Shown here in pieces: positions 9,019-9,936 of a stretch of DNA of 64,000 nt. The position numbers and the translations under genes are program-made. The notes below the pieces were generated by a model. It had not been told where the DNA came from. It ran no database searches and saw only the letters and a list, made by a program, of their open reading frames with translations. The stretch's first letter is position 1. Each line of letters starts with the position of its first letter. The stretch comes from Thermoplasmatales archaeon SM1-50 (GTDB taxonomy: Archaea > Thermoplasmatota > E2 > DHVEG-1): positions 14,550-78,549 of the forward strand of contig LSSI01000025.1 of NCBI GenBank assembly GCA_001595945.1, given 5' to 3'.

Positions 9019-9936
9019 ATGTCTGAAATGAAAATTATGTGCCCCAAATGCCACCATCAATTCACCGTCAAAGGTCAACCAAATGAAACGATGCACGTGA
9101 CCTGCCCTTCTTGTAAAACCTTTGGAACATTCACCGTTCCTGAAAGCACCTGCGATACAAATAAAGTGGAGTGTTTTACGGATATCGGGGACACCCGTTT
9201 TAAAAAATTACGAATATTTAACGCGATAATGGGCGTTATACATATGATCCAAGGATTTCTCATGCTGTTATTAAGCAATGCTTTTACTCTTCCATTAACC
9301 TATACGCATCCAGAATATAACGCCACTACTAATACGATTTCACCGGTATCTGAAACCTTTTTTAACGTGCAGATTGGTCCTCTTGTAGCTTTGTTTCTTT
9401 TCATGTCAGCTATTGCTCATCTGCTCATTGCAACCATTCTTTATCAATGGTATGTACGCAATCTGAAAAACCATATCAACCCAGCTCGATGGTATGAATA
9501 CTCGTTTAGTGCGTCGTTGATGATCTTTATCATCGCAATGCTTGTAACAATCTATGATATCGGAACTTTGCTTGGCTTATTTACCCTCACTGCGGTTATG
9601 AACCTCATGGGCTTGATGATGGAATTGCATAATCAGACGACAACAAAAACCAATTGGACATCCTATACTATCGGATGTATCGCTGGTTTTATCCCCTGGG
9701 TCGTTATATTCATTCCTCTTATCACCGCAGGATCTGTTCCAGATTTTGTTATAGCGATATTTATCACTATCGCGGTGTTTTTCAATCTCTTTGCCATCAA
9801 CATGTTTCTCCAGTATAAGAAAATCGGAAAATGGAAGGACTATCTGTATGGCGAACGCATGTATGTGGTTCTAAGCCTTATCGCAAAATCCGCTCTTGCC
9901 TGGCAGGTATTTGCAGGCACGCTTCGACCAATGTAA
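9019..9936 (+). CDS. Heliorhodopsin with an N-terminal double CxxC zinc-ribbon domain
   Basis: Residues ~60-305 align throughout with heliorhodopsin 48C12 and TaHeR as recalled from memory: FNAIMGVIHMIQGFLMLLLSNAFTLPLT, FMSAIAHLL, ARWYEYSFSASLMIFIIA, IGCIAGFIPWVV, and the retinal-Lys helix YLYGERMYVVLSLIAKSALAWQVFAGTL. The first ~55 aa form a CPKC...CPSC zinc ribbon (MCPKCHHQFTVKGQPNETMHVTCPSCKTFGTFTVPESTC). Confidence 0.85.
   Translation: MSEMKIMCPKCHHQFTVKGQPNETMHVTCPSCKTFGTFTVPESTCDTNKVECFTDIGDTRFKKLRIFNAIMGVIHMIQGFLMLLLSNAFTLPLTYTHPEYNATTNTISPVSETFFNVQIGPLVALFLFMSAIAHLLIATILYQWYVRNLKNHINPARWYEYSFSASLMIFIIAMLVTIYDIGTLLGLFTLTAVMNLMGLMMELHNQTTTKTNWTSYTIGCIAGFIPWVVIFIPLITAGSVPDFVIAIFITIAVFFNLFAINMFLQYKKIGKWKDYLYGERMYVVLSLIAKSALAWQVFAGTLRPM

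Follow-up and report, generated by a model that had tools for sequence, protein, structure and literature searches.

What would a zinc ribbon do at the N-terminus of a heliorhodopsin? The question is raised by a 64,000-nt stretch of the Thermoplasmatales archaeon SM1-50 (contig LSSI01000025.1 of assembly GCA_001595945.1, positions 14,550 to 78,549), which is the whole stretch of DNA analysed and is called here the window. Its gene at 9019-9936 encodes a heliorhodopsin (HeR) headed by a four-cysteine (C4) ribbon module. What heliorhodopsins do in the cell is largely unsettled, and domain fusions count among the scarce direct clues to their role. The architecture itself is not new, as the window protein is by its sequence a further member of the known Znf-HeR, published in 2021 (Bulzu et al., 2021). 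What appears to be new is the presence of a homologous ribbon on operon-linked ATP-binding cassette (ABC) ATPases, which lie outside the window, in a sister clade. Considering these elements together, Znf-HeR can be regarded with moderate confidence as a regulatory photoreceptor whose ribbon would dock cytoplasmic partners, the best candidate being a DrrA-type ABC-2 exporter.

The gene and its parts are arranged as follows:

9019..9936, + strand: Znf-HeR gene, complete, with an ATG start and 305 codons followed by TAA.
9019..9150, + strand: N-terminal C4 zinc-ribbon module, residues 1-44, with the motif CPKC-17x-CPSC.
9040-9051 and 9103-9114, + strand: cysteine knuckles C8/C11 and C29/C32, respectively.
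9151..9192, + strand: variable linker, residues 45-58, carrying a conserved C52-F53 just before helix A.
9193..9933, + strand: seven-helix heliorhodopsin domain, residues 59-305, as given by Pfam, the alignment with TaHeR and AlphaFold2.
9241-9243, 9418-9420, 9496-9498 and 9886-9888, + strand: codons of H75, H134, the counterion E160 and the Schiff-base K290, respectively.

According to both the open reading frame (ORF) listing and the sequence, the frame is continuous, with 0 internal stops and 0 frameshifts, so the in-frame position of the C4 ribbon within a 305-aa ORF, as put forward in a sequence-only reading of this DNA, holds. Membership of the heliorhodopsin family is established by full-length hidden Markov model (HMM) matches above the curated cut-offs of both Pfam and NCBIfam. 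The whole profile of Pfam PF18761 (positions 1-242 of 242) aligns with residues 64-302 (E=1.5e-96, 322.9 bits, for a cut-off of 26.7 bits) and the NCBIfam HeR equivalog NF038020 scores 345.4 bits (cut-off of 100 bits). The best match of solved structure is TaHeR from Thermoplasmatales archaeon SG8-52-1 (PDB 6IS6, 7U55, 7CLJ), aligned by 6is6 with residues 55-305 of the query (E=1.4e-124), and the structure of 48C12 matches at E=4.9e-52; TaHeR (72% identity) and 48C12 are also the top Foldseek matches of the AlphaFold2 model. The sequence-only reading had already assigned the C-terminal part to the heliorhodopsins, and the helices it quoted (FMSAIAHLL, WYEYSFSAS, GCIAGFIPW and SLIAKSALAWQVFAGTL) align residue for residue with TaHeR.

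The residues H75, H134, E160 and K290 are unchanged throughout an alignment of 52 Znf-HeRs. In the alignment with TaHeR, K290 and E160 pair with the corresponding residues and, from the offset, the four would be H23, H82, E108 and K238 of TaHeR. Across the seven-transmembrane (7TM) domain, the two proteins are 72% identical and share the Schiff-base lysine, the counterion glutamate, both histidines and the long beta-hairpin of extracellular loop (ECL) 1, whereas TaHeR is devoid of the ribbon, its N-terminus beginning approximately where the linker of the window protein ends. The PDB chain of TaHeR, with 259 residues, is 6 residues longer than the TaHeR-like genes of 253 aa, the extra residues being read as a tag. 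In the AlphaFold2 model of the window protein, the seven helices and the ECL1 hairpin (residues 90-118) are present, with an overall predicted local distance difference test (pLDDT) of 69, a predicted TM-score (pTM) of 0.49 and a TM-score of 0.47-0.55 to TaHeR despite the 72% identity. With a GC content of 40.4%, close to the 40.8% of the window, the gene looks native. An identical protein (100%, P0001) is encoded on NCBI contig CDMAWP010000114.1 (assembly GCA_976014245.1), where the local gene order is the same. The gene thus almost certainly specifies a Znf-HeR, that is a TaHeR-like heliorhodopsin endowed with a retinal Schiff-base lysine (K290), a counterion (E160) and the histidines H75 and H134.

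In the original description, six HeRs from Thermoplasmatales were named Znf-HeR (N-terminal variant 'ntv1'), with a zinc_ribbon_4-like CxxC-17x-CxxC N-terminus, the structure of which was modelled and the motif of which was likened to rubredoxins (mSphere 6:e00661-21, PMC8612252; Bulzu et al., 2021). Most of them had lycopene cyclase, phytoene desaturase, SQS_PSY, photolyase and UvdE as neighbours, and a role in downstream signalling via unidentified partners was proposed; this description was then cited by Cho et al. (2022). The motif, the taxon, the flanking carotenoid (crt) genes and UvdE are shared with the window protein. The rarity and novelty implied by the sequence-only reading were therefore overstated, as further attested by the identical protein of GCA_976014245.1. 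Compared with these six sequences, at least 119 clusters formed at 90% identity are now counted in the family, and a full-length Znf-HeR (65-90% identity) is encoded in no fewer than 33 species-level genomes. In a collection of 5.8 billion proteins, 119 of the 120 closest protein clusters (71-100% identity) exhibit exactly the CxxC-17x-CxxC spacing, so that the motif is not fortuitous, and 91 of these 120 are exactly 305 aa long. All 33 genomes are metagenome-assembled genomes (MAGs) titled Thermoplasmata, Thermoplasmatota or Thermoplasmatales archaeon or, less specifically, Euryarchaeota or Methanobacteriota archaeon.

Regarding the ribbon itself, C8-P-K-C11 and C29-P-S-C32 are separated by a gap of 17 residues. 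Its best Pfam match, Zn_ribbon_4 (PF13717), is weak (E=4.7e-4, 20.5 bits, for a gathering score of 30.3 bits) and the NCBIfam MJ0042 model does not match the window HeR. By the Pfam cut-off, it is a zinc-ribbon-like C4 module outside formal PF13717 membership. Like it, the ribbons of the Zn_ribbon_4/MJ0042 type have two CPxC knuckles about 17-20 residues apart; they are short, all-beta, usually N-terminal and often placed before membrane segments. C8, P9, C11, G19, C29, C32, T34 and G36 are invariant among the 52 aligned sequences and P30 is nearly so among Znf-HeRs. AlphaFold2 models four short strands (residues 2-7, 14-19, 24-28 and 35-39) around both CPxC motifs, with a moderate pLDDT of about 70-76. 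The ratio pN/pS, obtained from Nei-Gojobori counts over 19 orthologues, is 0.34 over the ribbon (codons 1-44), rises to 0.69 in the linker and falls to 0.15 in the 7TM core; in a second comparison restricted to the closest relatives, it is 0.21 for the ribbon and 0.09 for the core. With such values of 0.21-0.34, the ribbon is translated and subject to purifying selection. The linker (pLDDT 52-56, below 50 for residues 55-57) is the least constrained part of the protein by this ratio and belongs to the segment modelled with the lowest confidence (residues ~41-58), which reads as a flexible linker. Nonetheless variable, it retains C52 and F53 in 97% of the sequences, C45 being found in 34% only.

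As for the side of the membrane on which the ribbon would stand, 14 Lys/Arg are found in the linker and intracellular loops (ICL) 1-3, on the N-terminal side, vs. 1 in ECL1-3 and the C-terminus. This bias predicts the inverted topology of heliorhodopsins with the ribbon in the cytoplasm, in line with the location proposed by the sequence-only reading.

The ribbon is also carried by other proteins. An HMM of the HeR ribbon matches the N-terminus of an ABC ATPase at locus L015 (E=1.6e-14) and, with E=2.3e-14, an ORF that begins 50 bp after the HeR gene of locus L013 and is interrupted where the contig ends. By its ABC_tran and DrrA1-3_C domains, the L015 protein belongs to the DrrA-type ABC-2 ATPases, and its gene is followed on the same strand by those of an ABC-2 permease and then of the Znf-HeR. 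Over 44 aa, the ribbon of this ATPase shares 64% identity with the HeR ribbon of L011 and, more generally, HeR and ABC ribbons share about 63% identity and the same 17-residue spacing, the similarity extending to surface positions outside the cysteines. With the additional invariant G19, T34 and G36, the HeR/ABC ribbon is by sequence a tight subfamily of its own. Homology search retrieved at least 35 clusters of such Znf-DrrA-type ATPases of about 387 aa (P0121-P0159), the ribbon-less DrrA relatives of which are 337-347 aa long and 75-87% identical over the common part. The Znf-ABC ATPase genes lie at:

L015, 7929-9089
L084, 6708-7829
L086, 6279-7442
L088, 6001-7164
L091, 6001-7164
L093, 2785-3948

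Nine distinct Znf-ABC arrangements were distinguished, six of which (L015, L013 as a probable case, L084/85, L086/87/93, L088 and L091) have a same-strand Znf-HeR beside the ATPase-permease pair, in either order. In the fullest cassette (L084/85, L086/87 and L093, also L015), a SOUL-family gene and hyp219, the gene of an unannotated 219-aa protein that also adjoins the window HeR, are followed divergently by Znf-ABC, permease and Znf-HeR, and the genes flanking the L084/85 and L086/87/93 cassettes differ. L091 is syntenic with the window (PSY, DUF1722, UvdE, PNPOx ... HeR, C25 peptidase) but for an insertion, made of a frameshifted second Znf-HeR, a Znf-ABC pair and a methyltransferase, that separates the PNPOx side from the window-type HeR. 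Such a Znf-ABC ribbon ATPase is not described in the literature searched, and the sharing of a ribbon between HeR and ABC ATPase is found neither in the OcHeR-OmrDE paper discussed below, nor in Chazan et al., nor in the main text of PMC8612252, where ABC transporters, SOUL proteins and the hyp219 neighbour are not mentioned either.

Two side observations concern these loci. Proteins of the SOUL haem-binding family recur beside hyp219, HeR and Znf-ABC (L007, L010, L011, L013, L015, L021, L029, L039, L066, L069, L073, L081, L082, L084-L088 and L093) and are absent from the window. At L089 (1762-12278), the Znf-ABC pair stands amid oxidative-stress genes, namely those for ferredoxin-thioredoxin-reductase-like protein, glutaredoxin, pyridine-nucleotide disulfide oxidoreductase, hemerythrin, Fur, AhpC and catalase-peroxidase.

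Beyond HeRs and ABC ATPases, the ribbon profile gave 409 matches at E<=1e-3 against 1.84 billion representatives. The strong ones correspond to a single N-terminal ribbon on heliorhodopsins, many divergent DrrA-like ATPases and unannotated polytopic membrane proteins (P0248, P0253, P0254, P0260, P0264, P0285, P0297, P0299, P0306, P0311, P0320, P0321, P0327, P0328, P0334 and P0339); several others are multi-ribbon proteins. For the five ribbon-bearing membrane proteins scanned (P0253, P0260, P0264, P0299 and P0328), no Pfam family was found. From this recurrence on ABC ATPases and membrane proteins, the ribbon is a mobile N-terminal module of proteins active at the cytoplasmic face of the membrane, and looks like a general tag of them. 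The sequence-only reading had likewise spoken of a mobile domain type, and that part stands owing to the homologous ribbons on DrrA-type ATPases and unannotated membrane proteins; the evidence it gave, i.e. a ribbon deemed closely related in another protein of the window, was wrong. The protein in question is:

22187-22720, + strand: two-ribbon membrane protein of 177 aa, with a TTG start overlapping the stop of the upstream gene for an 836-aa protein.

At its N-terminus it has two hydrophobic helices, after which come two C4 ribbons, C84/87/108/111 and C140/143/165/168 (spacings of 20 and 21), with HVO_2753_ZBP as best Pfam match, just under the cut-off. Its likeness to the HeR ribbon amounts to 12/33 identities (BLASTP, E=0.003) with a spacing of 20 instead of 17, and it scores 16.5 bits on the Znf-HeR ribbon HMM vs. 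53-84 bits for true members. With no homologue in 80 related loci, it was rejected as a paralogue attesting ribbon mobility, the resemblance being generic to C4 ribbons.

How could such a protein operate? Like other heliorhodopsins, Znf-HeR would be a slow-cycling, non-pumping photoreceptor acting by contact with other proteins. The ribbon, most likely with one Zn2+ bound, would form a docking module on a variable tether of about 14 residues, holding or positioning a partner at the cytoplasmic face, to which light-driven helix movements would be passed on; that the ribbon is a protein-docking module is a proposition we hold at even strength for and against. The best candidate class of partner would be the DrrA-type ABC-2 exporter, the ATPase of which is ribbon-bearing and shares one operon with Znf-HeR in sister lineages. 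The HeR and ABC ribbons may bind each other or a common adaptor, and the outcome would be a light-modulated export within a photoprotection programme that includes carotenoid synthesis, UvdE, the SOUL protein and the PNPOx-like protein. An ABC exporter could also be the partner of the window's own protein, a suggestion that is tentative at best. It is equally doubtful, though conceivable, that the ribbon is an 'address tag' common to Znf-HeR and the Znf-DrrA exporter in a light-gated export complex, with the window copy reaching a Znf-tagged partner whose gene would lie at another place in the genome. Such a complex could expel photosensitising or photodamaged compounds, which would be consistent with the recurrent neighbourhood of a SOUL haem/porphyrin-binding protein and of the secreted PPC-like hyp219.

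The regulation of an ABC exporter by a HeR has an experimental precedent in a bacterium, where OcHeR directly binds the exporter OmrDE and up-regulates it in the light (Nat Commun 2024, PMC11109279). In both cases, HeR and ABC exporter are encoded in one operon. The OcHeR-OmrDE system differs in being bacterial, in relying on the heterodimeric OmrDE exporter rather than on the DrrAB-like ABC-2 system of the cassette, and in that neither partner bears a zinc ribbon, the word 'zinc' being absent from PMC11109279. HeRs also bind glutamine synthetase (PMC9529153), and SOUL, PNPOx as well as ABC or MFS transporters have previously been noted near HeR genes (Chazan et al.). The other known N-terminal cytoplasmic fusion to a HeR, MORN-HeR, was likewise read as an interaction or oligomerisation module, and consists of three MORN repeats in Dethiobacteria/Syntrophomonadaceae as opposed to a ribbon in Thermoplasmatota (PMC8612252). 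The follow-up thus yields a concrete partner hypothesis, namely a ribbon-bearing ABC-2 exporter that shares an operon with Znf-HeR in several independent genomic backgrounds. Should the ribbons mediate this coupling, Znf-HeR would be the first case of a heliorhodopsin having a defined docking module, and a compact template for light-controlled transport.

Several points weigh against the docking of an ABC exporter. Three of the Znf-ABC arrangements (L081/82, L089 and L090) have no HeR nearby and, conversely, Znf-ABC is present within 10 kb in only 2 of the 33 species-level Znf-HeR loci. In a rough neighbour-joining tree, the ABC-linked Znf-HeRs form clade 'a' and the window protein falls in clade 'b'; no ABC gene flanks the window HeR and no Znf-ABC ribbon occurs in the 64-kb window. 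The identity of HeR and ABC ribbons is 0.64 within a locus vs. 0.63 across loci, 113 of 720 permutations reaching at least the observed value, hence there is no signal of co-evolution, and concerted evolution or co-variation of same-locus HeR and ABC ribbons was rejected. The AlphaFold2 model (pLDDT 69, pTM 0.49) is too weak for a docking site of the ribbon to be derived from it. Close relatives without ribbon, including TaHeR-like proteins of 253 aa, evidently function without it. Finally, full-text literature searches returned no later paper using the term Znf-HeR or studying one experimentally.

Among the other roles that can be envisaged, the ribbon could be a redox or metal sensor, either Cys4-Zn as in zinc-binding anti-sigma factors or Hsp33, or Cys4-Fe as in rubredoxins, oxidised by light-generated reactive oxygen species; the release of the metal would gate HeR and the Znf-ABC exporter, light and oxidative stress being integrated in one protein. 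The four cysteines are indeed invariant and a fifth, C52, is 97% conserved beside the membrane; the gene lies among photoprotective neighbours (carotenoid genes, UvdE, PNPOx-like protein), SOUL proteins recur beside the cassette and one Znf-ABC locus lies amid hemerythrin, Fur, AhpC, catalase-peroxidase, glutaredoxin and pyridine-nucleotide disulfide oxidoreductase. Besides, oxidative-stress families are the commonest HeR neighbours (Chazan et al.) and the rubredoxin likeness of the motif was remarked upon by Bulzu et al. (PMC8612252). However, neither Hsp33, nor rubredoxin, nor the zinc domains of anti-sigma factors are matched at a significant level, the best Pfam matches being generic zinc ribbons, and the data fit plain structural metal binding as well as sensing. 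Structural Cys4 zinc ribbons are far commoner than redox-switch ones, and a sensor role is considered unlikely.

A similarly low probability is assigned to a ribbon without any signalling partner, which would assist folding, topology or oligomerisation, either as a cytoplasmic plug fixing the N-in orientation or as a stabiliser of the HeR dimer. HeRs do depend on an N-in topology, the ribbon stands without exception at the very N-terminus, many of its other carriers are polytopic membrane proteins, the existence of ribbon-less close relatives makes it dispensable for the core function, and dimer stabilisation was suggested for the analogous MORN-HeR fusion (PMC8612252). Yet, the ribbon is carried most often, and with the greatest diversity, by soluble ABC ATPase subunits, for which no topology signal is needed, and even without the ribbon the HeR core has an extreme positive-inside bias. 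The ~63% identity between HeR and ABC ribbons, including at non-cysteine surface positions, rather suggests a shared binding function.

Binding of the ribbon to nucleic acid or to the transcription machinery, an option raised in the sequence-only reading, is quite improbable; it would make Znf-HeR a one-component light regulator, tethered to the membrane, for the photoprotection genes next to it. These carotenoid and UV-repair genes are light-induced in other organisms, and the ribbon profile weakly resembles ribbons of TFIIB, Elf1, S27e and the Brz type, but all such matches are far under the family cut-offs. With 4 Lys/Arg vs. 3 Asp/Glu, residues 1-44 offer no marked basic surface, a membrane tether of about 14 residues gives little reach, and the same ribbon is found on ABC ATPases and diverse membrane proteins, where DNA binding is implausible. 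Moreover, the sole inverted repeat of the promoter region, a 7-bp TTGTTAC/GTAACAA (~8927-8950) tried as operator of the divergent promoter, is not conserved.

The chance that the fusion is an artefact of annotation or assembly, i.e. two genes or a mis-called start, is negligible, since what speaks for it is a general caution and the lack of ribbon in TaHeR and several close relatives, whereas the frame is continuous with no internal start ahead of helix A, a Shine-Dalgarno-like motif and a TATA-like box are conserved 5' of M1, the same 305-aa architecture recurs across many assemblies, in 119 independent clusters and in 33 species genomes, purifying selection acts on the ribbon codons and the ribbon-less relatives have a genuine in-frame stop upstream; this explanation is already refuted by the present data. 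No ATG occurs between M25 and M71, the latter being already within helix A, which makes a ribbon-less product from an internal ATG start implausible; together with the conserved GAGG 9 nt 5' of M1, this agrees with the earlier view that the ribbon is not a separate gene. The signals around the gene are:

8908..9018, no strand: divergent intergenic region common to hyp219 and the HeR gene, with elements positionally kept across 12 orthologous regions.
8911-8923, no strand: TATA-like box CCTATATAAATAT, conserved in position in the 12 orthologous intergenic regions.
8963-8974, no strand: TATA-like box AAACAAATATAG, ~45-55 nt 5' of M1, likewise conserved in position.
9005-9009, no strand: Shine-Dalgarno-like GAGGA, 9 nt 5' of M1, conserved in the same 12 regions.
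9937..9955, + strand: T-rich tract caattttctttttttttt, read from the sequence directly 3' of the stop codon.

The elements of 8908-9018 would constitute a putative archaeal promoter, and the T-rich tract is likely an archaeal oligo-T terminator. As the next gene is convergent, the HeR gene is apparently monocistronic in the window.

Regarding the ribbon-less relatives, the close TaHeR-like genes encode 253 aa (63-79% identity) and have in-frame stops just upstream, so that the absence of the ribbon is real; no separate ribbon ORF was found within 10 kb of them. The view of TaHeR as a 5'-truncated Znf-HeR was rejected for the close relatives on account of these stops, the SG8-52-1 contig itself being outside the fetched loci. 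In the rough neighbour-joining tree, ribbon-less clades are nested among Znf-HeR clades, which implies one gain and at least two losses of the ribbon, or repeated gains. Some genomes hold two Znf-HeR paralogues, as observed at L091 (4485-5950 and 8848-9786) and for L010 and L016, which belong to the same MAG. At L091, the copy upstream of Znf-ABC is frameshifted, and an assembly error is possible since other genes are split on that contig; the intact copy belongs to clade 'b' and the frameshifted one is closest to clade-'a' HeRs by BLASTP. The two paralogues thus appear to correspond to clades 'a' and 'b'.

The neighbourhood of the HeR gene includes, upstream, the following genes identified by Pfam:

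633-1541, + strand: UbiA prenyltransferase.
1657-2475, + strand: rhodanese.
2569-3306, + strand: lycopene cyclase.
3389-4870, + strand: CrtI.
4857-5750, + strand: phytoene synthase.
5756-6736, + strand: DUF523/DUF1722 YbgA-like protein.
6733-7626, + strand: UvdE.
7623-8099, + strand: PNPOx-like protein.

These genes at 633..8099 can be viewed as a photoprotection-type cluster, and the carotenoid and UV-repair genes that the sequence-only reading placed next to the HeR gene are indeed there, with lycopene cyclase, CrtI, phytoene synthase and UvdE within 633-7626. Parts of the cluster recur within 10 kb of 7-9 of the 33 Znf-HeR loci, and UvdE and PNPOx are near none of the 45 ribbon-less HeR loci (0/45). 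A photolyase was reported at the Znf-HeR loci of Bulzu et al., whereas no photolyase, Blh/Brp retinal-forming beta-carotene dioxygenase or histidine kinase is present among the ORFs scanned in the 64-kb window. The gene at 5756-6736, a fusion of DUF523 (2-thiouracil desulfurase-like) and DUF1722, overlaps the start of UvdE by 4 nt. The fusion is of the YbgA type, which in bacteria is found with photolyase genes and stands here beside UvdE.

Directly upstream of the HeR gene and divergent from it is hyp219:

8248..8907, - strand: hyp219, unannotated family of 219 aa, predicted secreted or membrane-anchored beta-sandwich.

Its true start is probably M7 at 8889. By sequence, hyp219 has no match in PDB, Pfam or NCBIfam, the fold search alone being informative; the family counts 553 members and all 120 listed are named 'hypothetical protein' at source. 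The invariant residues are A30-H31-V32-P33-Y34, directly after the N-terminal helix, and H217. If this helix is a signal or anchor, hyp219 is predicted outside the cell, on the side of the membrane opposite to the ribbon. It is the most constant neighbour of Znf-HeR, adjoining the HeR gene in 15 of the 33 Znf-HeR species loci; among the loci having at least 900 bp on both flanks, it adjoins 12 of 28 Znf-HeR genes vs. 1 of 33 ribbon-less ones, these adjacency counts being inflated by the relatedness of the genomes. As hyp219 is found upstream of HeR and divergent from it, downstream and convergent, or co-directional with it, three arrangements in all, its linkage to HeR appears to be real despite this kinship effect.

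Further downstream, the window comprises:

10029..10958, - strand: ZitB-like cation diffusion facilitator (CDF) divalent-cation efflux transporter, convergent with the HeR gene (Pfam Cation_efflux and ZT_dimer; NCBIfam CDF, 272.6 bits).
11406-13340, + strand: C25 (gingipain-type) peptidase with propeptide, after the CDF transporter.
19680-22190, + strand: large surface protein of 836 aa, rich in Asn and Thr and anchored in the membrane at its C-terminus.

The CDF transporter is conserved next to HeR only in the closest relatives (L002, L005, L019, L032, L039 and L049), and its candidacy as a functional link between zinc transport and the zinc ribbon was rejected, plain synteny being the probable explanation. 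The 836-aa surface protein and the C25 peptidase are typical extracellular proteins of these archaea. After a small methyltransferase, a trio of MtrA-like, MtrH-like and MetE-like (cobalamin-independent synthase domain) genes is encoded at 14106-16480 on the + strand, in an order that is kept in L002, L039 and L049.

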